A stretch of 37,059 nucleotides of DNA from NCBI GenBank assembly GCA_964388495.1, contig CAYMAT010000007.1, forward strand, positions 1 through 37,059. Direction: 5' to 3'. The position numbers were made by a program, and so were the translations under genes. Below, in pieces: positions 4,123 to 27,010 of this stretch. Numbering within the stretch: the stretch's first letter is position 1; each line of letters begins with the position of its first letter. The DNA is from an uncultured Candidatus Peribacteria bacterium. GTDB taxonomy: Bacteria; Patescibacteriota; Gracilibacteria; Peribacterales; Peribacteraceae. The notes under the pieces are model-generated. The model ran no database searches, was not told the DNA's origin, and saw nothing but the letters and a program-made list of their open reading frames with translations.

Positions 4123-4473
4123 ATGGGTCGTCCATCCAAGATCACGCTTCTGGCCAAACGCGAGCCCGTGGCTCCGCTCACGCATCCGGGGCAAAAAGAA
4201 CTGGTGCAGGATAAGTTGCGCGATCTGGCCCGCAACAAGGAATTGGTAGCAGCGCTCGCAAAAATCCTGGATGACACACAAAGCAGTCGCAAAACGGTGG
4301 GAATTACTGATCATGTTCTTAGTGTTTCACTCCGGGGCTTTGAAAATCAGATCAAAAGCCTGCTGGAAAAGGCAGAAAAAACATTGGGTGAGCGTCTGAT
4401 CATCAAGGAGCCACCAAAAAATGATTTCAGAAATACAGAGAAGGCCGATCCGGCTGAGCGCGCGGCCAGTTAA
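4123..4473 (+). CDS. Small hypothetical protein (116 aa), MGRPSK... N-terminus, Lys/Glu-rich and helical
   Basis: It fills an otherwise roughly 400-bp gap. Third codon positions look GC-biased by eye. GATAGT at 4107-4112 lies 10 nt upstream of the ATG. No homolog recognised. Confidence 0.4.
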   Translation: MGRPSKITLLAKREPVAPLTHPGQKELVQDKLRDLARNKELVAALAKILDDTQSSRKTVGITDHVLSVSLRGFENQIKSLLEKAEKTLGERLIIKEPPKNDFRNTEKADPAERAAS

Positions 4474-4476
4474 ACA

Positions 4477-5121
4477 TCAACGAATGTTCGCCGTGCTCTT
4501 CTGCTCCATGCCGGGCACCGCGCGGATTTCCTTACCCGTCACTTTTCCGTCTTTGAACGTGTAGACGATGGGCGTGACCAGCGGGATTTCGAACGTAGCC
4601 GCTTCTTCTTCGCTCAAATTATCCAGATACATGATGATGGGGCGGAGGCTATTGCCGTGTGCCACCACTAGCACGGTGTTTTCGCCCGTGATTTCCGGAA
4701 CGATGTACTGCTTGTAGAACGGCAGTGTGCGGCGGACGCAGTCCTCAATGCTCTCACCGTTGGGAGGACGGATGGAATAGCTCCGGCGCCACTGCTTCAC
4801 CTGTTCCTCGCCGTACTTCTTAATGGTATCGGCCTTGTTGAGTCCCTGCAGGTCCCCGTAGTGGCGCTCGTTCAGCGCGGAATCCAGAACAGGAACGGCA
4901 TCACAGGAGCCATATCCCTCCAGCACTCCCTTATACGTATTTTGCGCACGCTTGAGGCGCGAGATAAAGACTTTGTCGAAGGTGAAACCTGTAAGGCTCT
5001 TACCGGCCAACACCGAGTCTTTCTTTCCCGCATCAGAAAGCTCCACATCCGTCCAGCCGGTAAAGCGGTTTTCCAGGTTCCATTGCGACTGTCCGTGACG
5101 GAGGAGGATGAGGGTAGCCAT
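4477..5121 (-). CDS. gpmA: 2,3-bisphosphoglycerate-dependent phosphoglycerate mutase
   Basis: N-terminus MATLILLRHGQSQWNLENRFTGWTDVELS with the RHG catalytic motif, then ...VVAHGNSLRPIIMYL. Confidence 0.9.
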   Translation of the reverse strand: MATLILLRHGQSQWNLENRFTGWTDVELSDAGKKDSVLAGKSLTGFTFDKVFISRLKRAQNTYKGVLEGYGSCDAVPVLDSALNERHYGDLQGLNKADTIKKYGEEQVKQWRRSYSIRPPNGESIEDCVRRTLPFYKQYIVPEITGENTVLVVAHGNSLRPIIMYLDNLSEEEAATFEIPLVTPIVYTFKDGKVTGKEIRAVPGMEQKSTANIR

Positions 5122-11551: not shown

Positions 11552-13311
11552 TGACGCAGTTCATCGGCGAAGAAAGGACGGCCGTCGTACTTGAGGATTT
11601 TTTGTGCGATGTCCACGCCCGTTTCCATCCGGATCATCATGCCCAGTTGGGCCTGCTTGTTGCATTCCACGATAACCGACTTTTTGGCTTTCTTGAGCAA
11701 TTTCTCTAACCTCTCAGTCTTGAGGGGCCAGAGGTAAGTGTAATGGAGATAACCAATCTTCTGCCCCCCTGCCCCCTTGCCCTCCTGCCCTTTTAGGGCA
11801 TCCAGAATCACACCCTTGTTGCTGCCCCAGGAGACGATGAGCATGTTCAGCGACGGATTGTCTTTGACGATTTTCCCGTTCACATACAGGTCCGGTTCCG
11901 GCAGCGCGGCCTTGAGCGCCTCCCCTTTGCGCATGCGCTTCTCCATTTGCTCCTGCGCGTTCTGCGCCGTCTCGTTCACGTTGCCCGCGGCGTCATGCTC
12001 GTCGCTCTGCGCGCAGTACGTGGCGGCCTCCGCTCCCGGCAGCCAGCGCGGGGAGATTCCGTCCTTGGCGGAGGGATCAAAGCGGTCGGTGCTGCGGAGC
12101 TTGGCGAGTTTCTGGGGATCAGTGACGAGTTTCCCGCGGCGGATCTTCGCCTTCTTCTGGTCAAACGGCTTCTGCGTAAAGAGCGCCTCCGCCGTCTGCT
12201 TGTCCGTCATGACAATGACGGGAATCTGGTATTCCTCAGCGATATTGAACGCCTGGGGCATGAGGTCGAAGCTGTCCTGTGACTCACTGACGGAGAGCAC
12301 GCAGCGCGGGAATTCCCCGTGTGCGGAACCCACGGCCAGCAGCAGGTCACCCTGCGCGGTCCACGTAGGGAGGCCGGTGGCGGGGCCGGGGCGCTGCGCG
12401 AGCACGAAGACGGACGGGTTCTCGATGATGCCGTTCATGCTGACGGTCTCCGTCATGAGATCGAATCCTCCCCCCGATGTCCCCGTTGCCGCACGCGTGC
12501 CCATGTACATGGCTCCGCTCATCATCTGCGCGGCGGTGATCTCGTCCTCCGCCTGCTTGATCACCATGCCAGTCTTGTTCTGGATCTCCGCTACGTAACT
12601 GAGGAGAGGAGAAGAAGGCGTCATGGGATACCCCACGTACATGCGACAACCGCCGTGCACCAAGCCCAGACCCATGGCCTGGCTGCCCGTGATGAGGAGA
12701 TGGTTCTTCCATTCGGGATTGGCTTTGGGAAGCGACAAACTTAACTCCTTCCGGTGTCCTGCCGCAAACGCCATACCCTCGTCGATACACTGATGGTTTG
12801 CCTGTACCACGGCATCGCCCTTGTAGCTGAACTGTTCGGTGGCCAGGTCTTTGAGCGCCTCAGCGGGAAGACCCAGGAACGACCACACGATGGACGTGAC
12901 CAGCATGTTACCCATGATGGGTCGCGCCTTCATTTTCTTCAGGATCTCCTCGATGGGCAGGTACAGCACGCGCACGCCGCGGCTGTCCAGGTCCCTCTGG
13001 ATTTTGGGATCGAATTTCCACTGCGGCGTCTGGTGCAGGATCACGCCGCCGTCGCGCACCTCATGGATGTTTTTCTCCAGACCGTGATGGTTGAAGTTCA
13101 CCAGGAGATGCACCCGGGACTCCGTGCTCTCCACATAATCGGCACTCACGTCCAGCTGATAACTGCTGTGCCCCCCCTTGATGAGCGAGTTGTATTCACG
13201 GTAACCAAAGACGCAGTACCCCGTGCGCTTGAGACCTTTGGCCAGCACCTCCCCCACGGAGTTGACCCCCTGCCCCTGCGCGCCGGTGATTTTGAGGGCG
13301 ATGCGCGTCAT
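11524..13311 (-). CDS. 2-oxoacid:ferredoxin/flavodoxin oxidoreductase, fused gamma-alpha subunit
   Basis: The N-terminal gamma domain reads IALKITGAQGQGVNSVGEVLAKGL...GGHSSYQL. An alpha domain follows: GYPMTPSSPLL....EDEITAAQMMSGA...GTSGGGFDLM. I prefer ATG 13311 because it overlaps the flavodoxin stop as ATGA. ATG 13344 is the alternative. Confidence 0.88.
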   Translation of the reverse strand: MTRIALKITGAQGQGVNSVGEVLAKGLKRTGYCVFGYREYNSLIKGGHSSYQLDVSADYVESTESRVHLLVNFNHHGLEKNIHEVRDGGVILHQTPQWKFDPKIQRDLDSRGVRVLYLPIEEILKKMKARPIMGNMLVTSIVWSFLGLPAEALKDLATEQFSYKGDAVVQANHQCIDEGMAFAAGHRKELSLSLPKANPEWKNHLLITGSQAMGLGLVHGGCRMYVGYPMTPSSPLLSYVAEIQNKTGMVIKQAEDEITAAQMMSGAMYMGTRAATGTSGGGFDLMTETVSMNGIIENPSVFVLAQRPGPATGLPTWTAQGDLLLAVGSAHGEFPRCVLSVSESQDSFDLMPQAFNIAEEYQIPVIVMTDKQTAEALFTQKPFDQKKAKIRRGKLVTDPQKLAKLRSTDRFDPSAKDGISPRWLPGAEAATYCAQSDEHDAAGNVNETAQNAQEQMEKRMRKGEALKAALPEPDLYVNGKIVKDNPSLNMLIVSWGSNKGVILDALKGQEGKGAGGQKIGYLHYTYLWPLKTERLEKLLKKAKKSVIVECNKQAQLGMMIRMETGVDIAQKILKYDGRPFFADELRQRLAISNQQ

Positions 13312-13781
13312 GCGTTGAGGAATGTTGCCAGTTTTTGCGTCCATTTGGCGATCTTTTCCTCCTGTCCGTAGGGTTCGTCAATGACGGTGAGCGCATCCAC
13401 AGCCACTTTCCCACCATGGGTGACGATATACGAACGGAGATATTCACCCGCGCGCGCGGTGTAGAAATAGCGGTGGTCACCCAGCGCGATGATGGAACAC
13501 GGCCTTCCCCCAAGATCCACCGTCTTTGCCGATCCGTTGAGCAGCGCATACATGTACGGATGCAACTGGCCCTCCACTCCGCCGGTGTTCCATGTTCCGG
13601 AAGCCAGGACCAATGTCTGGGCCTTAGCGAGATCTTCCGGGACGGCCTCTTCTGCACGCACCACGCGCGCGTGGATTTCCGGCAACAAGGTGCGCAGGCA
13701 CTCCACGGCATGATGGACCACCCATTCGGTATGGCCGCTCCCCGATGCATAGACGAAAGTCACGGACTGCACGGCTCCCAT
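13308..13781 (-). CDS. Flavodoxin (short-chain type)
   Basis: VTFVYASGSGHTE (FMN phosphate loop), LVLASGTWNTGGVEG, IALGDHRYFYTARAGEYL. It is the first gene of the OFOR operon. Confidence 0.8.
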   Translation of the reverse strand: MGAVQSVTFVYASGSGHTEWVVHHAVECLRTLLPEIHARVVRAEEAVPEDLAKAQTLVLASGTWNTGGVEGQLHPYMYALLNGSAKTVDLGGRPCSIIALGDHRYFYTARAGEYLRSYIVTHGGKVAVDALTVIDEPYGQEEKIAKWTQKLATFLNA

Positions 13782-13903: not shown

Positions 13904-13932
13904 TTGAAAAAATATCCAAAAAACGGTATACT
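13904..13932 (+). promoter_or_regulatory. Sigma70-like promoter (TTGAAA-17 nt-TATACT) for MBOAT gene 1
   Basis: TTGAAA at 13904-13909 and TATACT at 13927-13932. ATG 13943 is 10 nt downstream, with no SD. Confidence 0.55.
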
Positions 13933-13942
13933 GTCCGGATAC

Positions 13943-15334
13943 ATGAACTTCACGAGTTTCGGTTATCTTTGGCTGATCGCGGCGTTTACACCCGTGTACT
14001 GGATGGCCGCAAAAAGGGTGCGGCTGCGGAACCTGCTCCTGGTGCTGGTCAGTTATTTTATCTACGGGTTTCTGAATCCGTGGTACTGCCTCCTGCTCTT
14101 CTGCAGTTCGCTCACCGCGCATATCTGCGGGCAGTCTGTGCAGAACCCGGAGAGGAAAGGCCGCGCAATTATTGTGGCGGTGTCCGTTGCGGTGAACATC
14201 GGCATGCTGGCCTTCTTCAAGTACGAAGGGTTTTTTGCGACGCAGGTTGCTGCAGCGCTCACATCCGTGGGGATTGGCGTGACGGAAGCGGGTGCAAAAC
14301 TGATCATGCCCATCGGCATATCGTTCTATACGCTTCAGGCCGTGGGATTCACCGTGGACGCCTACCGCGCAAAGATACGCGTGGGTGAACTGCTGGAGAC
14401 CATGGCGTACCTGTCGTTCTTCCCCAAGCTCATCGCTGGCCCGTTGGAGCCGGCGGAAACTCTCCTGCCCCAGCTGCAGCAACCCAAGGATTTCCAGGTA
14501 TCGCATCTGGGCGAAGGAACGGAGCTGATGCTGTACGGACTGTTCAAAAAGCTGGTGGTTGCGGAGAACATCCGTCCGTACATCGACCAGATATTCCTGC
14601 TCAAAAACCCGTCAGCCACGCTGCTTGCCGTGGGGGCCGCGGGTTTCACCGTCCAGATTCTTGCGGATTTCTCCGGATACACGGACATCGCCCGCGGAAG
14701 CGCGCGCCTCCTGGGCTTCACGCTCATGGAGAATTTCCGCCTGCCGTACCTTGCCGTCTCCCCGTCCGATTTCTGGCGGCGTTGGCACATTTCGCTCTCC
14801 CAGTGGTTCAGGGATTACGTCTACATCCCGCTGGGGGGATCGGAATGGCAATCGCGGACGATGACGTGCATCGCGCTCATGACCACCATGATGATCAGCG
14901 GCTTGTGGCACGGAGTCACGGGTAATTTTTTGCTGTGGGGGCTGTACCACGGTCTGCTGCTCTGCGCATATACCATGCTGGGAATGGGCGGCTCATGGAG
15001 TCCGCGCACCAGGCTTGGGCGCGCGGCGGCATGGCTGACGATGACAATCTTCACGGTCTTCGGCTGGCTGCTCTTCCGCAGTCCCGGGACGCCCTGGTTT
15101 GTACATGTCATGGCAAACCTCACGCCCGGATTGACGCAATCGCAATCCGCTGTGGCCCTGGTGTGGCTGGGCATGTACGCGCTGTACGTCCTGCCGTGGG
15201 TCTGCGCGTGGACACTGAAGACGCGCTGGGGACAGCACCCCGCCGCACGCGCACTCAGTAATGCCATTGTTGCACTCAGCATCGTCTATCTGTCCATTGA
15301 GGTACCCCTCAACTTCGTTTACTACCAGTTCTGA
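13943..15334 (+). CDS. MBOAT-family membrane O-acyltransferase (AlgI/DltB/PatA-like), copy 1
   Basis: MNFTSFGYLWL..., ISFYTLQAVGFTVDAYR, FFPKLIAGP, DFWRRWHISLSQWFRDYVYIPLGGS, and GLWHG, which contains the conserved MBOAT His. I chose the start by homology with copy 2 (MQFTSLHYLAFL). Confidence 0.85.
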   Translation: MNFTSFGYLWLIAAFTPVYWMAAKRVRLRNLLLVLVSYFIYGFLNPWYCLLLFCSSLTAHICGQSVQNPERKGRAIIVAVSVAVNIGMLAFFKYEGFFATQVAAALTSVGIGVTEAGAKLIMPIGISFYTLQAVGFTVDAYRAKIRVGELLETMAYLSFFPKLIAGPLEPAETLLPQLQQPKDFQVSHLGEGTELMLYGLFKKLVVAENIRPYIDQIFLLKNPSATLLAVGAAGFTVQILADFSGYTDIARGSARLLGFTLMENFRLPYLAVSPSDFWRRWHISLSQWFRDYVYIPLGGSEWQSRTMTCIALMTTMMISGLWHGVTGNFLLWGLYHGLLLCAYTMLGMGGSWSPRTRLGRAAAWLTMTIFTVFGWLLFRSPGTPWFVHVMANLTPGLTQSQSAVALVWLGMYALYVLPWVCAWTLKTRWGQHPAARALSNAIVALSIVYLSIEVPLNFVYYQF

Positions 15335-15336
15335 AC

Positions 15337-16347
15337 ATGGAACCCCTGGAGACATCCGCCGCCCCACCGGCCCCCGCACCCGCATTCGCGCGTCATGCCG
15401 TGACCGTCCTGCTGCATGTCCTCTTCATCGCCGGCGGAATGGGGGCGATGACCGCATTGGGCAACCTGGCACCGGACCCCGACCACGTCTTACGGGAAAG
15501 CCAGGAGAAGTACGCCACCCAGCACTACGACGCGGTGATTGTGGGGAATGCGCTGGCATTCAACCAGATCGACACCGCACTTCTTTCCTCCGCCACCGGC
15601 ATGAGCGTGGGGAGGTTGACCAAAGGCGATTCGGAAATCCCGCTGTGGTACATGGCCGCACGCAATTTGCTCGGCAGCATGCGCATGCCGCCGCGCATGG
15701 CATTGATCGTCTTCAATGACTTTGAACTCACGGACCCCTCCCGCTATTCGCCGGGCTACCTGCTCTCGGACGTGCAGTCACTGCGTGAAAAGGACGATCC
15801 CGTGGCCGATGCAAGGGTGCTGAAGCCGGCTATGGGCCAACTCCAGTACCTGTTGTACCAAAATTTCCGCAGCTACCGGCTCAAGACCGCGGGCCACCGG
15901 TGGCTGGAACGCACCGTGCAGAATGCGGTTGCGGCATCGCTCTTCCTCCCCAAGGACAGCGTGCAGCGGATGGTGGAGAAAATTATTCCGGAAACGGAGA
16001 CACCCATTCCCTTTGAACCCACGGACGTGCGCAAGCCGGAGGAGAACATCGCCGGTTCGTTTCTGCCGCCGCTGCTGGATGAACTGAAACGGCAGGGCAT
16101 CCGTCCGGTTCTGGTCCGCGCGCGGACGCGGCGCTACACGGAACGGGCGTCCAATGCCAGCACCGTCAAGTACATGGACGCCCTGCGCGCGTACGTACAA
16201 TCACGCGGCGGGGTGGTTTTGGACTATGCGGAGGACCCGCGCATCACCCGCGATCATTTTGCGGACAGCCTGCATTTGAACCTCCTGGGACAGAAGACCT
16301 TCACGGAAATCCTCGCGCAGGACATCTCTTCCCTCCCGGCCCAATGA
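15337..16347 (+). CDS. Membrane-anchored SGNH-like accessory protein of the MBOAT system (AlgJ/PatB/DltD-like role), copy 1
   Basis: The start lies 2 nt after the MBOAT stop (TGAacATG). It has an N-terminal TM helix. It is clearly paralogous to 23071..24087 (YDAVIVGNALAF / PLWYMAARNLLGS / FND / DSLHLN..G). Confidence 0.7.
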   Translation: MEPLETSAAPPAPAPAFARHAVTVLLHVLFIAGGMGAMTALGNLAPDPDHVLRESQEKYATQHYDAVIVGNALAFNQIDTALLSSATGMSVGRLTKGDSEIPLWYMAARNLLGSMRMPPRMALIVFNDFELTDPSRYSPGYLLSDVQSLREKDDPVADARVLKPAMGQLQYLLYQNFRSYRLKTAGHRWLERTVQNAVAASLFLPKDSVQRMVEKIIPETETPIPFEPTDVRKPEENIAGSFLPPLLDELKRQGIRPVLVRARTRRYTERASNASTVKYMDALRAYVQSRGGVVLDYAEDPRITRDHFADSLHLNLLGQKTFTEILAQDISSLPAQ

Positions 16348-18413
16348 CATCCCTGCTGGATCCCAAATCCGTAGCGGTCATCGGCGCCTCTGCCACACAG
16401 GGGAAGGTGGGGCATGATATTTTGAGCAACCTGCTCATCCAGAAATTCCGCGGACATGTGGTTGCCGTGAACCCCAAGGGCGAGCGCATCCTGGGATGTC
16501 CCACCTATGCATCCGTCTCCGCCATGCCGGAAGCCGTGGACCTGGCGGTGGTGGCCATTCCCGCGCCCCTGGTTGCGGCAACGCTCAGGGAGTGCGGGGA
16601 AAAAGGCATCAAGAACGTGGTAGTGATCACCGCGGGGTTTAAGGAAACGCATACCCCTGAAGGGGACAAGCTGGAGGAGGAACTCCTCACCATCGCCAAA
16701 CAGTACAACCTCACGCTGGTGGGCCCCAACTGCCTGGGAATCCTGCGCCCTTCCATCGGCCTCAACGCGTCGTTCGCCAAGGACATCCCGCCCGCAGGCA
16801 ACGTGGCGCTCATCAGCCAATCCGGTTCCACCGCGGTGGCCATCATGGACCAGAGCGCGCAATTGGGACTCAGCTTCTCCGCGGTTTTCAGCATAGGGAA
16901 CAAAACGGTCCTGAACGAGGTGGACTATCTGCGTCTCTGCATGGACGACGACAAGACCACGGCAATCGGGCTGTATCTGGAGAACATCGATCACGGAACC
17001 GAATTTCTGGAGACCGCACGGGCAATCTCCCCCCGCAAACCGATCATTCTCTTGAAGGCGGGAACGACGGAGCAGGGCCGGCGCGCCGCGCAGTCCCACA
17101 CGGGCGCGCTTGCGGGAAGCGATGCGCCGCTGCAGACGCTCTGTGACCAGGCGGGCATTCATCTGACGCGCACGATGGATGATTTTATCGATACCATCGC
17201 CGTTTTGAGCAACCAACCCGCACTCCCCTCCCGCAATATCGCGATCGTGACCAACGCCGGAGGACTGGGGATCCTGGCAGCGGACGCCGCAACGCGCGCA
17301 GGCCTGACACTCCCCGCCCTGGCGGAAGACGGACAGAGGGATCTGGCGCCAAAACTCCCCGCATCGGCCAGCCTCCGCAATCCCTTTGACCTCATCGGAG
17401 ACGCAAAAACGGACAGGTACGAGGCGGCCATCCGCGCCATCCGCAGCGACCCCAACATCGACGGCATCGTGGTCCTGCTCTCGCCGCAGATCATGACACC
17501 CTGCTCGGAAATCGCGGATGTGGTCATACGGGAGATGCGCAACGTGAAACTCATGCCCATCACCACCTGTTTCATGGGCGGGGACATTGTGATGGACGCA
17601 CGCCGCAAGCTGCAGTCGCACAATATCCCCACCTTCCCCACGCCGGAGCGCGCCATTAACGCCCTTGCCCGGCTGTTCCCGCGCAAGGCAACGCTCACGG
17701 GAATGAGTTGTGTGCCCGACGGCGATACATCCAGAAAGGCAAAAGAGCTGATGAAGGGTTCCCAAGGTCTTCTGGACGATGACAGGGTAAGGGATCTGTT
17801 CTCGCTCTTTGGCCTCCCCGCCGATCCTTACCGCATCTGCAAAACGGCAGAGGAAGCGGCGGATGCTGCCGCGGAATTGGGGTACCCCGTAGCGGTGAAG
17901 ATCCATTCCCCGGATATCCTGCACAAAACCGATGTCGGCGGCGTTCGTTTGGGACTTAAAAGTAATGACGATGTACGTACAGCATTCCGCGAGATCATGG
18001 CGACTGTGGGCAACAGATCGCCGGCGGCCAGGGTGGAGGGGGTATTAGTCCAGAAAATGCTTCCGGCAGGCCACGAATTCATCGTGGGCGCCACGCGGGA
18101 CCCCAATTTTGGTCCGCTGATCATGGTGGGGCTGGGCGGCATATACACGGAACTGTTCCGGGACACCGTTTTCCGCATTGCGCCCATCGGCAAGGAGGAT
18201 GCCTACCGCATGCTGGAGGAGTTGCGATCGTGGAAAATGCTCCTGGGCATGCGCGGCAACCAGCAGAGCGATATTTCTGGTCTTGCGGAACTCATTGGCA
18301 ACGTCAGCAATCTTGTCTGCAATTGCCCGGAGATCAGGGAACTGGATTTAAACCCCGTGATCGTGCGGAGCGACGGAGTACATATTGCCGATGCGAAGAT
18401 CGTCGTAGGGTAA
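16344..18413 (+). CDS. ADP-forming acetyl-CoA synthetase (acetate--CoA ligase, fused alpha-beta)
   Basis: An N-terminal CoA-binding domain (KSVAVIGAS..GKVGH), then a succinyl-CoA-synthetase-like domain (VALISQSGS), then a C-terminal ATP-grasp domain (GYPVAVKIHSPDILHKTDVGGV). ATGA overlap with the upstream gene. Confidence 0.85.
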   Translation: MTSLLDPKSVAVIGASATQGKVGHDILSNLLIQKFRGHVVAVNPKGERILGCPTYASVSAMPEAVDLAVVAIPAPLVAATLRECGEKGIKNVVVITAGFKETHTPEGDKLEEELLTIAKQYNLTLVGPNCLGILRPSIGLNASFAKDIPPAGNVALISQSGSTAVAIMDQSAQLGLSFSAVFSIGNKTVLNEVDYLRLCMDDDKTTAIGLYLENIDHGTEFLETARAISPRKPIILLKAGTTEQGRRAAQSHTGALAGSDAPLQTLCDQAGIHLTRTMDDFIDTIAVLSNQPALPSRNIAIVTNAGGLGILAADAATRAGLTLPALAEDGQRDLAPKLPASASLRNPFDLIGDAKTDRYEAAIRAIRSDPNIDGIVVLLSPQIMTPCSEIADVVIREMRNVKLMPITTCFMGGDIVMDARRKLQSHNIPTFPTPERAINALARLFPRKATLTGMSCVPDGDTSRKAKELMKGSQGLLDDDRVRDLFSLFGLPADPYRICKTAEEAADAAAELGYPVAVKIHSPDILHKTDVGGVRLGLKSNDDVRTAFREIMATVGNRSPAARVEGVLVQKMLPAGHEFIVGATRDPNFGPLIMVGLGGIYTELFRDTVFRIAPIGKEDAYRMLEELRSWKMLLGMRGNQQSDISGLAELIGNVSNLVCNCPEIRELDLNPVIVRSDGVHIADAKIVVG

Positions 18414-19710: not shown

Positions 19711-21342
19711 ATGACCAGAAAGGTAGCCATCATCGCAGGTGCGGGGCCGGCAGGTTTAACTGCAGCGTACGAACTCCTCGTCCGAACGGATATTCAGCCC
19801 ATCGTCTGCGAGGAAACGGGGATCATCGGCGGCATCGCCCAGACCTTCAATTACAAGGACAACCGCATCGATATAGGCGGTCACCGTTTTTTCAGCAAGA
19901 GCGAGCGCGTGATGAAGTGGTGGTTCAATATCCTGCCCCTGCAGGGCGCTCCTTCCGCGGACACGGCAGAAAAAAACCACGAGATCGATTACGCCGCGGA
20001 GGCGATCGTGAAGTTCCTGTGCCCGGAGTGCGCGGAAGGACGGCCGGAAAAACGGACCGCACCAGACCCTGAAAAAGAGGATGAGGTGATGCTGCAGCGC
20101 CCGCGCCTCTCCCGCATCTTCTACAAGCGGCACTTTTTCCCCTATCCCATTGGCATCACGCTCTCCGTGGCGCGCAAGCTGGGCCTAGGGAACACCTTCT
20201 TGATAGGACTCAGCTACATCAAGGCCCAACTGTTTCCCATCAAACCCGAGCAATACCTGGATGCCTTCTTCACCAACCGTTTCGGATACCGGCTGTACAA
20301 GACCTTCTTTGAGAAATACACGGAGAAGGTGTGGGGTATCCCCTGCAGCCAGATCCGCGCGGACTGGGGGGCGCAGCGCGTGAAGGGCCTCTCGCTCAAG
20401 CGCGCGGTGATGCACGCGGTGAAAGACCTGCTGAGCAGCGATTTTAAGAAGGCGCAGGAAGAACGCGAGACCAGCCTGATCACGCGTTTTTACTATCCCA
20501 AATTCGGCCCGGGCCAGATGTGGGAAACGGTGGCCAGGCAGGTCCAGCAGTGCGGAGGCGAGGTGCACATGAAGACGCGCGTGGTGGCTGTAAAAGTGAG
20601 CAGCGGAAAGGTTACGGCCGTGACGCTGGAGAACGCAGACACAGGCTCGCGCGAGGAAGTCGCCTGTGATTACTTCTTCTCCACCATGCCCATCAAGCAC
20701 CTGATCGGCATGATCAGCCCCCGGCCGGAACCCAAAGTGGTGGAGGTTGCGGAGGGGCTGCAATACCGCGATTTTTTGACGGTCGGCCTGCTGCTGAAGA
20801 AGCTCCATGTGCTGGAAAAAGGGAATGGCGCGCAGACGAGCGTGCCCGATAACTGGATTTACGTGCAGGAGGGCGACGTGCGCGTGGGACGCATCCAAAT
20901 CTTCAACAACTGGAGCCCGTACATGGTAAAAGACTGGAAGAACACCGTGTGGATTGGCCTGGAATATTTTGTGAACGAGGGCGGTGACCTGTGGATCAAG
21001 CAGGACAAGGAGATGATCGATCTGGGCGTGAGCGAGATGGAAAAGATCGGCTTTGTGAAAAAGGACGACGTGCTGGACGCGTGCGTGCTGCGCATGCCCA
21101 AGGCTTACCCCTCATACTGGGGCAGCTACGAGCAGCTGCACGTGGTGCGCGATTACGTGAACACGGTGGAGAACATGTTCCTGGTAGGGCGCAACGGCAT
21201 GCACCGCTACAACAACCAGGACCACAGCATGCTCACGGCAATGCTGGCGGTGGACAACATCGCGGAAGGCAGGACCGACAAATCCAACCTGTGGGACGTG
21301 AACCTGGACATGGTCTACCACGAGACAAAAAAAGGAGGCTGA
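19711..21342 (+). CDS. NAD(P)/FAD-dependent oxidoreductase (amine-oxidase / UDP-galactopyranose-mutase-like fold)
   Basis: [19 protein letters not shown] is a dinucleotide-binding motif, and [11 protein letters not shown] follows. I prefer ATG 19711 over the track's GTG 19702. TATAGT at 19698-19703 sits 7 nt upstream of it. Confidence 0.8.
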
Positions 21343-21440
21343 CAGCAATACAGCTATAGAAAGGTTCTGTATGGAGAGATAAAAGAGGGTAAATTCATTT
21401 TTTTAGCTTATGGTAAACAAAAAAGTAGTGTTAAGTTTTT

Positions 21441-21468
21441 TTGACTTCACAGAGACTGTCCGTAAAAT
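21441..21468 (+). promoter_or_regulatory. Sigma70-like promoter (TTGACT-16 nt-TAAAAT) for the 21475 ORF
   Basis: TTGACT at 21441-21446 and TAAAAT at 21463-21468. GTG 21475 is 6 nt downstream, so the transcript is predicted to be leaderless. Confidence 0.55.
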
Positions 21469-21474
21469 TCCCTG

Positions 21475-23067
21475 GTGATACTCACGGAGGACACCGCCGA
21501 AAACCTTGCGCAAGATGCGGGCATCATGGCGCGCACGCATGCCAACGACCCCCCAAATTGGGACAAGATAATAAAAATTGTTTCTGCGGAACCCGCAGGA
21601 TTTGGAAGCAACAGAATGTTCCGAAAAAAGCTCATCCAGCTCCTTAGTCGGACAACACATCCGCTGGATGCCAGCATTAAAACCTTCAATGACGACATGC
21701 TGATCATCTCCCGTTACAATATATACGAGCAGCAGATTCTCGGGGATGAGGAAACCAAAAAAACAGCTGGCCAACTGTATATGGAACAGGAGCGTCATTC
21801 GCGGGAAATGGGTGAAAAACTGATGGAACATGCACCCAAATTCACGGAATGGGTCCGTGCTCAGGCAGACGCGTTGGCGGAACTGGTCCGGGAAAACAAT
21901 GCATGGAAAAACGGCACATTGCAGGAAAAAATGGATGTTCTGACGCAAGCCCTGTCTTGCATCAATATGTACGCCGCTGCTTGGAGCAGATCTTTCAATA
22001 CACGTCCGGGGTTTTCTACTGAAATAAGCTCTGTGGGGCAATTGACACAATCTGCCCTGCTCTCGCTGGTACAGCGGGTCCTCTTTACCCTGAAACCCTC
22101 CGACGATATTTCTGCCGCCTTGCAGAACATGCCTGAATGGCAATACAAAAAACTGTACACAGCCCCCGCGGATAAGAGGTTTCCAATATCGTATTTGGGC
22201 CCTAAAACGATTTCTCTGGCAAAAATACTGGGGTCGGGATTGGCGAGAATGAAAAAACTGCACGGCATACCCGAAACAGCCGAGGATGCCATTGGCTATG
22301 CCCCTCTGCCTCCCGTGCAAAACGACGTGCGCATGACCATCCTGGGAACCAAGATGAATCTTTTATACATCCAGATCCCTTTGGGAGGCGGAACGTTCCC
22401 CGTGGAGCAAATCATGGGAGAAAACCTAGAGGATGATCAGGAATTTTTTGCCGCCTACCGGGAGAAAACGGATACATGGTTTTTTGAAAGCATCACGGAG
22501 TATGCGGGGATGCGCGATTTTCTATCCACTGGAACGGAACAGTCGCTGAAAACCCTTCTCTATTGGAGCAGGCAAAAGGTGGATCGCATCCTGAAAGACA
22601 ATCCATTGGTTCACAAAAACCTGGATCAGATATCGAAATTCCATATCGAGATTGATCAAAACAACGAATATACCCTCTTTTGCGATCCTACCACCCAGGA
22701 AATTCTGGATGGACTCCAAATAACCGGTCCACAAACAAAAGAAGAGGAAAAGCAGTCCATTACCGCCTCCGCCCCTCCTCTCCACCAACGCTGCAAGGAA
22801 ATCTTCAGCACCCGTGACATTACCTCACTCCAATGGAACCGGGTCAGCTGGTTGCTGAGACACGCAGGTCTTGTGGAAACGCATGAAGGCAAAGGAAGTC
22901 ATATTAAATTCACGAATCCAGAAAACGAGAGTTTTTGCACGGTGTCCTATGCCTTCCACCACTCATCCACCGTGGATATCCCCTATGGAACCATCGCACG
23001 CTGGCTCTCTCAGGCAAATTTGACCGACGCACAAATAGGTCTGATAGAGGGCTTCCTGGATCAATGA
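21475..23067 (+). CDS. Hypothetical protein (530 aa) with a C-terminal HicA-like domain
   Basis: Long AT-richer ORF. The last ~70 aa read WLLRHAGLVETHEGKGSHIKFTNPENESFCTVSYAFHHSSTVDIPYGTIARWLSQANL. This fits the HicA (YcfA) toxin pattern, including the GSH histidine. The start could instead be ATG 21526. Confidence 0.7.
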   Translation: MILTEDTAENLAQDAGIMARTHANDPPNWDKIIKIVSAEPAGFGSNRMFRKKLIQLLSRTTHPLDASIKTFNDDMLIISRYNIYEQQILGDEETKKTAGQLYMEQERHSREMGEKLMEHAPKFTEWVRAQADALAELVRENNAWKNGTLQEKMDVLTQALSCINMYAAAWSRSFNTRPGFSTEISSVGQLTQSALLSLVQRVLFTLKPSDDISAALQNMPEWQYKKLYTAPADKRFPISYLGPKTISLAKILGSGLARMKKLHGIPETAEDAIGYAPLPPVQNDVRMTILGTKMNLLYIQIPLGGGTFPVEQIMGENLEDDQEFFAAYREKTDTWFFESITEYAGMRDFLSTGTEQSLKTLLYWSRQKVDRILKDNPLVHKNLDQISKFHIEIDQNNEYTLFCDPTTQEILDGLQITGPQTKEEEKQSITASAPPLHQRCKEIFSTRDITSLQWNRVSWLLRHAGLVETHEGKGSHIKFTNPENESFCTVSYAFHHSSTVDIPYGTIARWLSQANLTDAQIGLIEGFLDQ

Positions 23068-23070
23068 CAT

Positions 23071-24087
23071 TCACCGGATGAGCGGCCTGAGCGCTTCCGT
23101 GAGAATGCCCGTGAAGACCTTTCTGCCCTCCGGATTCATGTGGTCGTCTTTGCTGCCGCGGTAATACTGCGGCTGCAGGCGCTCCTCGTTGGTGAAATCG
23201 ATCAATACGCCGTCCCTTTGCTCAATGTATGTGCGCAGATCGGCCATGTAGCGGACTGTCTTCTTGCTCTGCGGTTTTCCGTCGGCATATTTCTTCTCAC
23301 GCACGCGGATGAAGATCAGCTGCATGTCGTATTTGGCTGCCTCGTCAAAGAGCAGCGGAAGGTACGAATCGCCTATGGCGATATCGAAGTTTTTCTGCGC
23401 GGTGGGCCCGGGGGTATTGGACGCATTGCGGCGGGATACGAATTTCACGATATGGTTACCGATGTCTTTTTCACTCCTGCGCGTGAACAGCGAGGCGAAG
23501 GCGCGGGATTCATCGTATATTTCCGTGCGGAGATCCTCTTTGATCGCATAGAGCGGGATATTCCGCTGCAGCGTTGCGCGGATCCATCCCTTCACCGGGA
23601 CAAGCGTTTTATCATAGAGAACGTCATCGTCCGGCTGAGCGATGGAAAGCAGGTCCGCCTCCTGGTATCCCACGGCACCGTTGGTGGTGGTGGTCAGGTC
23701 CGCATCGCGGAAGAAAACGAGAACCTGCCGTGGCGGCTCCTGGAGACGCGAACCGATGAGATTTTTAAGGGCCAGATACCAGTACGGGGTGCGCGACCCC
23801 CCGGTGGAAGTATCCACAATGCTGACCCCCAAATCCTTGCCAAGCGTGTCAAAATCCACGTTCACGTACGCCATGGAATTGCCCAAAACCCCCACATCGT
23901 ACTTTTCGGTTTCATGCTGTTTTCGCCAATCATCCAGGAGCGATGGACTTGCGCCCGCGCGGACGGCGACGGCGTTGGCCCCCGTTATGATCAATACAGC
24001 CAGCGCGACCACGTAGAGCCCAAAGAGCGCCAGCTTCCAGAAGCGGACGGGGGCGATAGCCTGCGGTTGAACGTTCTGGTCGGTCAT
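23071..24087 (-). CDS. Membrane-anchored SGNH-like accessory protein of the MBOAT system, copy 2
   Basis: ATG 24087 lies 1 nt after the MBOAT-2 stop (TGAcATG). It has an N-terminal TM helix. It is paralogous to 15337..16347 (YDVGVLGNSMAY / PYWYLALKNLIGS / FRD / DDHMNPEG). Confidence 0.7.
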   Translation of the reverse strand: MTDQNVQPQAIAPVRFWKLALFGLYVVALAVLIITGANAVAVRAGASPSLLDDWRKQHETEKYDVGVLGNSMAYVNVDFDTLGKDLGVSIVDTSTGGSRTPYWYLALKNLIGSRLQEPPRQVLVFFRDADLTTTTNGAVGYQEADLLSIAQPDDDVLYDKTLVPVKGWIRATLQRNIPLYAIKEDLRTEIYDESRAFASLFTRRSEKDIGNHIVKFVSRRNASNTPGPTAQKNFDIAIGDSYLPLLFDEAAKYDMQLIFIRVREKKYADGKPQSKKTVRYMADLRTYIEQRDGVLIDFTNEERLQPQYYRGSKDDHMNPEGRKVFTGILTEALRPLIR

Positions 24088-24088
24088 G

Positions 24089-25471
24089 TCAGAACTGGAA
24101 GTAGACGAAGTCCCCCGCCGCCTCCTGCCCCAGAATGAGGATGCAGGCAATGAGGCACGCATACATGACACCGCGCCCCAGCGGGTGCCGCACAAAGCGG
24201 TCCATGACCACAGGCACAGTCCAGAGAATCACAAAAAAAGCGGCGAAGCTGAGCCATACGGCCATCAGGGAAATCCCCCAGGATTCGCGCTCCCCTGTGG
24301 AACTGCGGACGCTCTGCAGCAGCCACGTGAGACTGGATGCCTTGAAGAGGATCCATCCCAACACAGTCCAAAAGAACATCACCGTGCGAGCGGTCCACTT
24401 GATGACGGCATTGCGGGGAACCCAGTGGCCGTCCATCTTGAGCAACTGGTAGACGAAAAGCAGGATGCCGTAATACAGGCCCCACAGCAGAAAGTTGACG
24501 GTGGCGCCGTGCCACAGGCCGCTGGCGCCCATGGTGACCAGCGTGGTGAAGAGGAGCTTGAGCTTACTGTCCGTACGGGAGCCGCCCAAAGGAATATAGA
24601 CATATGTAGTGAACCACTTGGAGAGCGAAATGTGCCAGCGCCTCCAGAAATCGGAAGGAGTCAGGGCAAGATACGGGTAATTGAAGTTCTCCATCAGATT
24701 GATGCCCAGCAGCCTGGCGCTTCCGCGCGCCAGGTCCGTATACCCGGAGAAGTCCGCAAGGATCTGGACGGCAAAGCAGAGGCCCCCCGTGAACAGAACG
24801 GTGAGGGGGACGGGGTTCCCCAGGAAAATGCGGTCCACATACGGAGAAATGTTGTCGGCAATGACGAGTTTTTTGAAAAACCCGAAAATCATGAGGGACA
24901 ATCCCCCGCTCAGGTTGGCCCAGTCCCACGCATGACGCTCGGCAATCTGCGGAAAAAACGTGCCGGCCTTTTCAAAGGGGCCGCTGATCAGCTTGGGGAA
25001 GAATGCCAGGAACACACTCACCTCCAGCCATCCCTGGCGCGGCACCTCGCCCTTGTAGGCGTCTGCCACCAAGCCCACCGCCTGCAGGGAGTAGAACGAA
25101 AGACCCAGCGGCAGAATGACATTGAGCAGGCTCTGAACCACCGGACTTGCCGTTTTGGGATTGATGAAATCCCCGATGAAATACCCCCAGTATTTGAAGA
25201 GCACCAGGATCCCGATATTGAAGACGATGCAGGCGACGAGAGGTAGGCGACTCCGCTGCTCTTTTTCCTTGGACCACAGGGCGTGCAAGCAAACATACGT
25301 GACCGCCGTGCTGATGAGCAGGAGCACGCAATACCACAGGCTCGCCCAGCCATAAAACAGGTAACTTCCCACCAGCAACTGGACGTTGCGGACCTTCTGG
25401 GAATCCGTCATCCAGTACACGCAACAGAAGACCGCAAGGAAGGCCAGATAGTGCAGGCTGGTGAACTGCAT
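24089..25471 (-). CDS. MBOAT-family membrane O-acyltransferase (AlgI/DltB/PatA-like), copy 2
   Basis: MQFTSLHYLAFL..., LSFYSLQAVGLVADAYK, FFPKLISGP, DFWRRWHISLSKWFTTYVYIPLGGS, GLWHG. The start is ATG 25471. The upstream 126 codons in the ORF track are junk that overlaps the divergent promoter. Confidence 0.85.
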   Translation of the reverse strand: MQFTSLHYLAFLAVFCCVYWMTDSQKVRNVQLLVGSYLFYGWASLWYCVLLLISTAVTYVCLHALWSKEKEQRSRLPLVACIVFNIGILVLFKYWGYFIGDFINPKTASPVVQSLLNVILPLGLSFYSLQAVGLVADAYKGEVPRQGWLEVSVFLAFFPKLISGPFEKAGTFFPQIAERHAWDWANLSGGLSLMIFGFFKKLVIADNISPYVDRIFLGNPVPLTVLFTGGLCFAVQILADFSGYTDLARGSARLLGINLMENFNYPYLALTPSDFWRRWHISLSKWFTTYVYIPLGGSRTDSKLKLLFTTLVTMGASGLWHGATVNFLLWGLYYGILLFVYQLLKMDGHWVPRNAVIKWTARTVMFFWTVLGWILFKASSLTWLLQSVRSSTGERESWGISLMAVWLSFAAFFVILWTVPVVMDRFVRHPLGRGVMYACLIACILILGQEAAGDFVYFQF

Positions 25472-25513: not shown

Positions 25514-27010
25514 ATGCTTTGGAACAGCAGAATCAGAAACGGCATGGGTATAACGCTGTCTGTAGCCGCCTTGCTGTGCCTGATTGCGTACCAGTTTCCC
25601 GTCCGTTTTTGGATGCAGGAAAAGTACGTGTCGCTCCACCAGACGTTTTTGCCGCATGCCAACGTCAAGACCGTGAAACTGAAAAGGGCCAGGCTGCTGT
25701 CCACCCTCGCAAAGGAATATTACGTGAAGAGCGGGGATCTGGTTTCCGCCAACCCCCTGCTCCGGCCCAGTGACGTGATCCCGGAAAAACTGTCGGTGCT
25801 CATCCCCGCCGACGCACTCGCCTCCGCCCCCGTCCCCACGGACCTGCAAAACAGACCCCGAGCACAGATCGCGTTCAGCACCAATGAAAACGCCATTGTC
25901 ATCAGCGGCGAGGGAGCTGTAGCCCGTCTTGCGGACATCGCACGCGTCATGAATGACCCCGCAATTCTTGAGCAGCGGGACAATGCCTGGCTGCTCTCAC
26001 GCAACATTTTGCTCATAGGCGGGGCGATCTTGGATCTGGAGGAAAAAAGCTCATGGCTGAGGCTGCGGAGCGATGCCGACATAACCGTGAACATCACGGC
26101 GGAAGACGGAAACATCGTCATGCGGGGGATGCGGGTGTCTTCCTGGGATCCATCCACGCAAAGCCCCGACACCAACACGGATGACGGAAGGGCGTACATC
26201 ACCCAGATGGCGGGGAGAATGGATATCATGGACAGCGAGATTTTCTCGCTGGGCTCCGAACACGGCCCCGCCGACAAATCGGGCGCCATCTACGGCCTTT
26301 CATGGAGAACGACAAACGCGGAGCATGACGACATGCTGGTGGCGGGCAGTATTGCGCGCTCCTCGGTTCACGATAATTATTACGGGCTTTACTCGTACGG
26401 TTCCACGGCGCTTCGCATAGTCAAAAACGAGTTTTACAGAAACATCCAGTACGGCATTGCGCCGCATGATGATTCGCGCTTTTCCGTCATCCAGAAAAAC
26501 TACGTTCACGACAACGGCAAGCACGGGATCATGCTGAGTAACGGCTGTAACGACAACCTTATGGAGGGGAACATCGTCGTCCACAACGGACTCAGCGGCA
26601 TCATGATCAGCAAGCTCTCCAAGAGGAACACAGCACGCTCCAATATTGCGGCGTTCAACGCGGCGGGGATCACCCTGAACGACAGGTCATCGGAAAACAC
26701 CCTGGATGCGAACGCGTCACTGGATAACAAAAACGGTATCGAGATCCGCAGAATGTCCAGCGCCAACGTGGTAAAGGCCAACGTGGTCCAACGCAACGTG
26801 AACGGAGTGGTCATCAACAGCAGATCCTATGACAACGATGTCTTCGGCAACCTGGTGGAACAAAACGGCACGGCGGTCTCGCTCAAGGAGACATCGGGAA
26901 ACTACCTGCACGACAACTTCACCTACGCGGGGAACCAGAAGAATGTCACGGCAGCGGCATCGGCAAAAGACAATGTGATCCGTTTCTTTGGGGATAACGG
27001 GGATTTCTGA
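25514..27010 (+). CDS. Right-handed parallel beta-helix protein, AlgG-like (polyuronate C5-epimerase / CASH-domain family), membrane-anchored or exported
   Basis: N-terminal hydrophobic segment GITLSVAALLCLIAY. Repeated ~22-aa units of the N-x-(V/I)-x-x-N type are present. YGIAPHDDSRFSVIQKNYVHDNGKHGIMLS resembles the AlgG YGFDPHDRS...HGIIIS region as I recall it from memory. Confidence 0.7.
   Translation: MLWNSRIRNGMGITLSVAALLCLIAYQFPVRFWMQEKYVSLHQTFLPHANVKTVKLKRARLLSTLAKEYYVKSGDLVSANPLLRPSDVIPEKLSVLIPADALASAPVPTDLQNRPRAQIAFSTNENAIVISGEGAVARLADIARVMNDPAILEQRDNAWLLSRNILLIGGAILDLEEKSSWLRLRSDADITVNITAEDGNIVMRGMRVSSWDPSTQSPDTNTDDGRAYITQMAGRMDIMDSEIFSLGSEHGPADKSGAIYGLSWRTTNAEHDDMLVAGSIARSSVHDNYYGLYSYGSTALRIVKNEFYRNIQYGIAPHDDSRFSVIQKNYVHDNGKHGIMLSNGCNDNLMEGNIVVHNGLSGIMISKLSKRNTARSNIAAFNAAGITLNDRSSENTLDANASLDNKNGIEIRRMSSANVVKANVVQRNVNGVVINSRSYDNDVFGNLVEQNGTAVSLKETSGNYLHDNFTYAGNQKNVTAAASAKDNVIRFFGDNGDF

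Follow-up and report, generated by a model that had tools for sequence, protein, structure and literature searches.

A naturally serine-less SGNH-fold partner, apparently under selection, is encoded beside an intact MBOAT in a Candidatus Peribacteria genome

The acyl relay of membrane-bound O-acyltransferases (MBOATs) and their SGNH partners, which runs from the catalytic His of the MBOAT to an acyl-Tyr in its tail, then to an acyl-Ser and on to a polymer, was established only in 2023-2025. More than one such module per genome has a precedent in Bacillus cereus, which has two PatA/PatB pairs for the O-acetylation of its secondary cell wall polysaccharide. In PatA, the Tyr of an FxYxxF motif is auto-acetylated from acetyl-CoA, and the SGNH partner then receives the acyl group on its Ser; the Dlt system instead carries the motif on a separate microprotein, DltX (PMC12148441). 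The triad of L. plantarum DltD is Ser74/Asp373/His376, with Gly104 and Gln133 nearby (PMC13653941). The alginate system also includes a non-catalytic accessory protein, AlgF, while the SGNH-clan family DUF1574 has no known activity or structure (PMC9487903). Here, we describe two MBOAT-partner modules in a 37,059-nucleotide stretch of DNA of an uncultured Candidatus Peribacteria bacterium (contig CAYMAT010000007.1, positions 1 to 37,059, assembly GCA_964388495.1; this whole stretch is called the window below). In module 1, the SGNH-fold partner has an Ala in place of the serine nucleophile, although the MBOAT beside it is intact. We lean towards the view that this partner is a maintained pseudo-transferase.

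Module 1 lies on the forward strand and consists of MBOAT1 (13943-15334, 463 residues; Pfam PF03062, 81.5 bits versus a cut-off of 27) and partner 1 (15337-16347, 336 residues; P0002). Module 2 lies on the reverse strand and consists of MBOAT2 (24089-25471, 460 residues; PF03062, 69.1 bits versus the same cut-off) and partner 2 (23071-24087, 338 residues; P0004). A preliminary description of the window had reported two complete modules of this kind, and all four reading frames are indeed present at these positions, as are the motifs that it quoted: DFWRRWHISLS, YVYIPLGGS and GLWHG in the MBOATs, and the aligned blocks of the partners, including VGNALAF in partner 1 and LGNSMAY in partner 2. 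The close junctions that it pointed out are 2 nt from the MBOAT stop to the partner ATG in module 1 and 1 nt in module 2. Each partner also has the single N-terminal transmembrane helix ascribed to it: the best 19-residue Kyte-Doolittle window begins at residue 21 in partner 1 and at residue 19 in partner 2, and AlphaFold2 models one hydrophobic N-terminal helix at residues 16-44 and 14-43, respectively. MBOAT1 and MBOAT2 are 44% identical (E 2e-133), and the two partners are 29% identical over their entire length (E 2e-41). These are the sole MBOATs and the sole partner homologs of the genome (1.2 Mb, 93% complete).

The family of the partners was collected with HMMER by searching exhaustively through 1.84 billion representatives of clusters at 50% identity, and comprises 1175 relatives at E <= 1e-3, of which 217 reach E <= 1e-30. 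AlphaFold2 models built with the resulting family alignment are of high confidence for both proteins (pLDDT 91.4 and pTM 0.86 for partner 1; pLDDT 92.5 and pTM 0.87 for partner 2). When the models of both partners were compared to the PDB with Foldseek, DltD came first (6pfx, E 2e-5 and 1e-4; also 3bma, 7dxm and 6o93), followed by GDSL lipases (those of Bacteroides among them), TesA and PAF-AH; all of these matches, DltD included, have a probability of 1.00. As modelled, both partners have the five-stranded alpha/beta/alpha fold of the SGNH clan (CL0264). Hence, the SGNH-like character proposed for the partners from the window alone is borne out by confident models, with DltD as the nearest solved structures.

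The positions of the SGNH blocks were assigned from the order of secondary-structure elements in the models together with profile alignments, and are given in P0002 numbering. Block I follows beta1 at the start of a helix (family consensus G70-N71-S72), block II follows beta2 (G97-G98), block III follows beta3 (R127-D128) and block V follows beta5 (D310-x-x-H313). GN(S/A) falls at the beta1/alpha1 junction in both models. Furthermore, a profile of 115 family sequences aligns GNS to the GNS of block I in the solved GDSL proteins 4ppy and 4iyj, and D-G-D-H to their block V D-G-V-H (DxxH). The order and spacing of the blocks also parallel L. plantarum DltD, in which S74, G104, Q133, D373 and H376 are colinear with S72, G98, R127, D310 and H313 of the family. 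The supposition that the first conserved block is SGNH block I, reading G-N-S in copy 2 and G-N-A in copy 1, is thus supported by the models and by the alignment to 4ppy and 4iyj.

Conservation was counted in a MAFFT alignment of 151 members, in which the relatives are the best 150 of the 1175 representatives. The block I column holds Ser in 150 of the 151 sequences, and Ala only in partner 1, whose G-N-A is encoded by GGG AAT GCG at 15544-15552 (Ala72 by GCG at 15550-15552). Further relatives recovered from genomes all have GNS or GDS. Partner 2 has the predicted nucleophile, Ser71, encoded by TCC at 23875-23877 on the reverse strand. The earlier proposal that copy 1 lacks the serine nucleophile therefore stands. 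The block V His is invariant (151/151), and partner 1 retains both this residue (His313, codon at 16273-16275) and the Asp three residues upstream (D310-S-L-H313). In partner 2, block V reads K-D-D-H past a two-residue insertion, which leaves the register of its Asp ambiguous.

Partner 1 is also altered elsewhere in the predicted active site. Gly98 of block II is Gly in 145 of 151 members, partner 2 included, and Asp only in partner 1; position 127 of block III is Arg in 142, again with partner 2 among them, and Asn in partner 1 alone; and column 109 is Lys in 146 and Arg only in partner 1. With deviations at 3 of the 12 columns conserved at 95% or more (median 0), partner 1 ranks first among the 151 members. 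None of these 12 columns is altered in partner 2, and when the threshold is lowered to 90%, partner 2 deviates at a single one of 21 columns; it has the full set of family-conserved active-site residues on its SGNH/DltD-fold domain. Given the additional changes in blocks II and III, the case for divergence of partner 1 rests on more than one substitution.

The MBOATs, for their part, look complete. Both have the catalytic His in GLWHG and the RRWH motif (residue 323 and residues 280-283, respectively, in MBOAT1), and both end in an FxYxxF hexapeptide: F-V-Y-Y-Q-F in MBOAT1 (15314-15331, forward strand), as the final six residues ahead of the stop, and F-V-Y-F-Q-F in MBOAT2 (24092-24109, reverse strand). 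The C-termini of all 11 partner-linked MBOATs examined fit F[IVL]Y[FY][QRK]F. MBOAT1 keeps every one of the 70 columns that are invariant among these 11 proteins; its four unique deviations are conservative and their count is not that of an outlier. One of the four lies in the shuttle motif, whose position 4 is Tyr in MBOAT1 and Phe in the 10 other partner-linked MBOATs. The second Tyr beside the acyl-carrying Tyr of MBOAT1 could be a co-adaptation to the Ser-less partner. MBOAT2 shows no unique deviation at conserved columns. With the DltB model (TIGR04091), MBOAT1 and MBOAT2 reach 145.9 and 130.8 bits, respectively, versus a cut-off of 375. The fusion of the FxYxxF tail to the MBOAT and the low DltB scores point to AlgI/PatA-type enzymes whose acyl donor is an acyl-CoA and not a DltC-borne group. 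Of the AlgI/DltB/PatA type to which the MBOATs had been assigned, the AlgI/PatA part thus holds while the DltB part does not, and a DltB/DltD system was rejected on the same two grounds.

The authenticity of the Ala of partner 1 was examined in independent Logan assemblies. Three of these (L095, L096 and L097), each built from another sequencing run, contain the module 1 locus at 97-99% nucleotide identity, and all three have GCG for Ala72 and an uninterrupted frame of 336 codons. A sequencing or assembly error at this codon was rejected, because the same GCG is present in four assemblies. Sixteen codons of partner 1 vary among the four strains, 11 of them synonymously and 5 nonsynonymously, and the latter (6, 57, 114, 269 and 272) include no conserved position. 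Pairwise ratios of nonsynonymous to synonymous change (dN/dS) are 0.08-0.23, and under neutrality, so low a number of nonsynonymous changes would have a probability of 0.0055 and 0.001. For comparison, dN/dS is 0-0.25 for MBOAT1, which is similar, and 0-0.11 for two sets of neighbouring genes described below, the ADP-forming acetyl-CoA synthetase (ACD) and the 2-oxoacid:ferredoxin oxidoreductase (POR), which are under tighter constraint than partner 1. Partner 1 behaves as a coding sequence under purifying selection, although the counts are small.

By analogy with the described systems, both loci are probably two-component extracytoplasmic O-acyltransferase systems of the bacterial MBOAT-SGNH kind, and probably O-acetyltransferases. 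As in PatA/PatB, the catalytic His of the MBOAT would take an acyl group from cytoplasmic acyl-CoA and load it, on the outer face of the membrane, onto the Tyr in the FxYxxF tail of the same protein; the membrane-anchored SGNH partner would receive this group on the Ser of block I and hand it to a surface glycan. Module 2 carries the residues predicted to be necessary for such a relay. For module 1, loading of the tail Tyr of MBOAT1 should still be possible, while partner 1 would be unable to form the acyl-serine intermediate, and acyl transfer would then be carried out by partner 2 or proceed straight from the acyl-Tyr. Given that partner 1 is folded, conserved and selected, we lean towards a maintained pseudo-transferase, that is, a non-catalytic subunit that would dock to MBOAT1, bind the acceptor polymer and/or gate the transfer. 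The suggestion in the preliminary description that copy 1 may be catalytically divergent or act as a non-catalytic adaptor is in line with Ala72, the changes in blocks II and III, the intact MBOAT1 and the purifying selection on partner 1.

Several observations weigh against this view of partner 1. Its loss of activity is deduced from the Ser-to-Ala change by itself; His313 and Asp310 are retained, and R127N recreates the Asn of a canonical SGNH block III, so that the active site could be remodelled, not dead. The selection test draws on just 16 variable codons, and the excess in evolutionary rate of partner 1, described below, is modest and depends on the outgroup. Other Ser-less members may also exist beyond the best 150 of the 1175 representatives. 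If the active site is remodelled, partner 1 would still be a transferase that works without an acyl-serine: His313/Asp310 would activate a hydroxyl of the acceptor, which would directly attack the acyl-Tyr of the MBOAT1 tail, with G98D and R127N rebuilding the oxyanion hole. The invariant His and the DxxH Asp kept in partner 1, its fully preserved fold, the purifying selection on it and the canonical Asn produced by R127N all agree with such a transferase, and so does an intact MBOAT1 that differs only in its FVYYQF shuttle motif, possibly by co-adaptation. Nevertheless, we consider it rather unlikely, because PatB, OatA and DltD, the characterised MBOAT/AT3-SGNH transferases, transfer via Ser (PMC12148441; PMC13653941), because the retention of Ser in 150 of 151 members argues that it is strongly required, and because no precedent for a Ser-less SGNH transferase was found in the literature searched. 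A broader proposal, which we regard as speculative and give a low probability, takes MBOAT1 and partner 1 as a working system without an acyl-serine step, in which the acyl-Tyr of FVYYQF is discharged directly onto an acceptor held and activated by His313/Asp310, or in which partner 1 gates the acyl-Tyr or redirects it to partner 2, with the cassette co-transcribed with the ACD. If this were true, surface acetylation would be tied to acetyl-CoA flux through co-transcription of module 1 with the acetyl-CoA-consuming ACD.

It is also conceivable that module 1 is being lost, selection on it having relaxed after the arrival of the intact module 2, so that the nucleophile mutated and partner 1 is an early pseudogene with a still-open frame. 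Several near-invariant positions are altered in partner 1, a second and complete module is present in the genome, the branches of module 1 are longer than those of its L006 orthologs (1.16 versus 0.56 for the partner, 0.51 versus 0.19 for the MBOAT), and the dN/dS of partner 1 is above that of the ACD and POR. We think this quite improbable all the same: frameshifts and stops are absent in the four strains, dN/dS is clearly below 1, all five amino-acid polymorphisms fall at non-conserved positions, MBOAT1 retains every invariant column, the tight translational coupling to MBOAT1 and to an essential-looking ACD is kept, and AlphaFold2 confidence is as high for partner 1 as for partner 2. Finally, both copies would be ordinary complete enzymes if the true nucleophile lay elsewhere or if the Ala were an error. 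Other hydroxyl residues are indeed conserved in the family (S241, T132 and T323), but the GNS occupies the canonical block I in both models and in the alignments to solved GDSL enzymes, its Ser is the only near-invariant Ser adjoining beta1, and four independent assemblies agree on the GCG codon. This explanation is largely refuted, and we regard it as very improbable.

Compared with PatA/PatB of Neisseria and Campylobacter, the modules share a separate MBOAT and an SGNH protein on one N-terminal transmembrane helix, the MBOAT catalytic His with an FxYxxF acyl-Tyr motif at the extreme C-terminus, and the order of SGNH blocks from Ser to DxxH. They differ in that the partners have no Pfam match to DUF459/PatB, in that they have a large DltD-like helical insertion where PatB has beta-hairpin wings, and in their block III, whose family consensus is Arg, as well as in the missing Ser of copy 1. 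With DltB/DltD/DltX, the likeness lies in the partner: DltD is the closest solved fold and likewise combines an N-terminal transmembrane helix with an extracellular SGNH domain bearing a helical insert. However, the partners here are about 90 residues shorter than DltD, none of 115 scanned members matches Pfam DltD, and the shuttle motif is fused to the MBOAT instead of being on DltX. AlgI/AlgJ/AlgX/AlgF resembles the present systems in its AlgI-type MBOAT with an FxYxxF tail, in having more than one SGNH-like component or module per organism, and in the AlgG-like beta-helix gene that lies beside module 2. AlgJ/AlgX and the DHHW family are nonetheless other SGNH families with another motif order, and an AlgJ/AlgX-type partner was rejected for both reasons; no alginate synthase is found in the window. 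Whereas AlgF is an unrelated protein, the non-catalytic component of the present systems would be an SGNH paralog that has degenerated.

At the sequence level, the best relative of the partners is DUF1574 (PF07611). P0002 has sub-threshold C-terminal matches to DUF1574 (16.3 bits, E 0.006, versus a gathering score of 29.1) and to Lipase_GDSL_2, while P0004 matches neither. Among 115 scanned members of the family, 51 match DUF1574 at E <= 0.01 (best 2.9e-9), 13 match Lipase_GDSL_2, one matches ALGX (PF16822) weakly (E 0.0013), and none matches PatB/DUF459 or, at E <= 0.01, DltD (PF04914). P0002 and P0005 align colinearly to the C-terminal third of DUF1574, and P0016 is a recorded DUF1574 protein that adjoins an MBOAT. 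By their sequences, the partners of the window would be outliers of curated DUF1574, or a sister group to it, that fall below its gathering score. Searches of PDB sequences with the single partners or with a three-sequence profile gave nothing relevant, and the 115-sequence profile gave weak GDSL matches only. Word-indexed homolog searches returned one relative for P0002, none for P0004 and nine for the 115-sequence profile, all unnamed or labelled as hypothetical proteins. Such searches missed a family of more than 1000 representatives; for fast-evolving surface proteins, orphan status is unreliable when it comes from a search of this kind alone.

In the distinct loci of relatives examined, an MBOAT gene adjoins the partner gene in 10 of 11 (L005, L006, L007, L013, L088, L089/L090, L093/L094, L098, L099 and L100), and the eleventh (L091/L092) is cut off upstream. 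This linkage indicates that the partner family is a general, uncharacterised partner of MBOATs. The neighbours of other cassettes are a GSDH with an alginate-lyase-like protein (L100, 2526-5295), ATP-sulfurylase/APS kinase and MurB (L093, 4895-6562), and an ABC transporter (L005, 2945-4658); given this variety, the acceptors are probably diverse. A search of genome contigs for loci related to P0004 alone found no relative, and an initial search for partner homologs in 60 related genomes found none.

Module 1 sits between two metabolic units. On one side is a divergent flavodoxin/POR operon, whose first gene encodes the flavodoxin (13308-13781, reverse strand; Pfam Flavodoxin_1). On the other is the ACD gene (16344-18413, forward strand; Pfam ATP-grasp_5, Succ_CoA_lig and CoA_binding), whose start overlaps the stop of partner 1 as ATGA. 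The ACD is closest to those of Candidatus Peribacteria/Peribacteraceae metagenome-assembled genomes (54-57% identity). The order flavodoxin, MBOAT, partner, ACD also occurs in L006, L007, L013 (a Peribacteria genome) and L098, and the partners there all have GNS. Among the eight Peribacteria loci retrieved (L008-L015), the flavodoxin directly adjoins the ACD in seven. The cassette is an accessory insertion between flavodoxin/POR and ACD that only a minority of Peribacteria carry, seen in one of the eight GTDB loci retrieved and in several metagenome contigs. The partner is also rare across the order, with strong matches in 3 of 200 genomes; two copies occur only in the present one, and the single-copy relatives retain Ser.

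The closest relative of the window is L006, from sequencing run SRR23592399, with identities of 83% for POR, 83% for the FAD oxidoreductase, 80% for ACD, 76% for GT2, 62% for the MBOAT and 34% for the partner. In a maximum-likelihood tree, partner 1 and the L006 partner are sisters (SH-aLRT 97; branches of 1.16 versus 0.56, respectively), while partner 2 lies within the subclade that holds the L007 and L098 partners. The MBOAT tree likewise places MBOAT1 as sister to the L006 MBOAT (99/99; 0.51 versus 0.19) and MBOAT2 as sister to the L007 MBOAT (97/98; 0.66 versus 0.65). In Tajima relative-rate tests, partner 1 has 41-50 unique changes versus 26-35, a modest excess whose P value ranges from 0.01 to 0.5 according to the outgroup. 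The nucleophile codon is TCG (Ser) in the L006 ortholog and GCG (Ala) in the window, a difference of a single T-to-G transversion. In L006, the 320 nt from the MBOAT stop to the called partner start (4199-4519) are open in the frame of the partner and encode a proline-rich, internally repetitive stretch (VPEGPP-like), and its partner may have a long N-terminal extension.

Given that the two modules group with different lineages in the trees, they do not stem from a recent duplication within the genome, and a recent tandem-type duplication was rejected for this reason. The modules had been described as paralogous pairs; their homology is confirmed by the identities given above, and the term needs refining in that no recent in-genome duplication is involved. 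Module 1 is the resident ortholog of the syntenic modules in relatives; module 2 either is a paralog of older origin or was transferred from a lineage resembling L007. Both modules co-occur in sequencing run SRR13612670, in which module 2 (L108) is identical in nucleotide sequence to the window over 2.4 kb (23071-25471) and module 1 with its neighbours (L095) differs at 1-3% of synonymous sites. This discrepancy might mean that module 2 has spread recently, or that the assemblies are mosaics of several strains.

The divergent neighbour of MBOAT2 encodes an AlgG-like right-handed beta-helix protein (25514-27010, forward strand; Pfam Beta_helix and NosD), whose best NCBIfam match is the mannuronan 5-epimerase AlgG (E 3e-25, 88.7 bits versus a cut-off of 700). 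This arrangement is also found in L108. The gene likely starts at 25514, as it is called in L108 (498 residues), and not at the GTG at 25283, which overlaps MBOAT2. On the other side of module 2, GC content is about 0.50 at 21000-23000 versus 0.56-0.61 on either side, over a 530-residue reading frame with a weak C-terminal match to HicA. The window has many genes for envelope glycans, among them two GT2-GtrA fusions, two NAD-dependent epimerases/dehydratases, a WecB-like 2-epimerase, a TuaD-like UDP-glucose 6-dehydrogenase and a Wzy_C-like protein. By analogy with PatA/AlgI, the acyl group would be acetyl, which fits the position of the cassette between the acetyl-CoA-producing POR and the acetyl-CoA-consuming ACD. 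The acceptor might be an acidic polysaccharide; this is a weak guess, prompted by the AlgG-like neighbour of module 2, the TuaD-like dehydrogenase and the alginate-lyase-like neighbour in L100.

Taken together, MBOAT-SGNH relays, DUF1574 as a catalogued but unstudied SGNH family, and several modules per genome, as in B. cereus, were already known. The new elements are the natural absence of the Ser from a partner that is apparently selected and adjoins an intact MBOAT, and the placement of such a cassette in an acetyl-CoA operon of Peribacteria; no description of a Ser-less SGNH transferase partner was found in the literature searched. Annotation of copy 1 as an active acyltransferase or hydrolase should be avoided. 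The cassette brings into view a large DUF1574-like family of 1175 representatives, almost always linked to MBOATs and without known activity or structure, and in Peribacteria, with their reduced genomes of about 1.2 Mb, it lies inside the core operon that leads from pyruvate through acetyl-CoA to acetate. A Ser-less partner next to an intact MBOAT is a natural test of what SGNH subunits do beyond supplying a nucleophile, be it docking, acceptor binding or gating.

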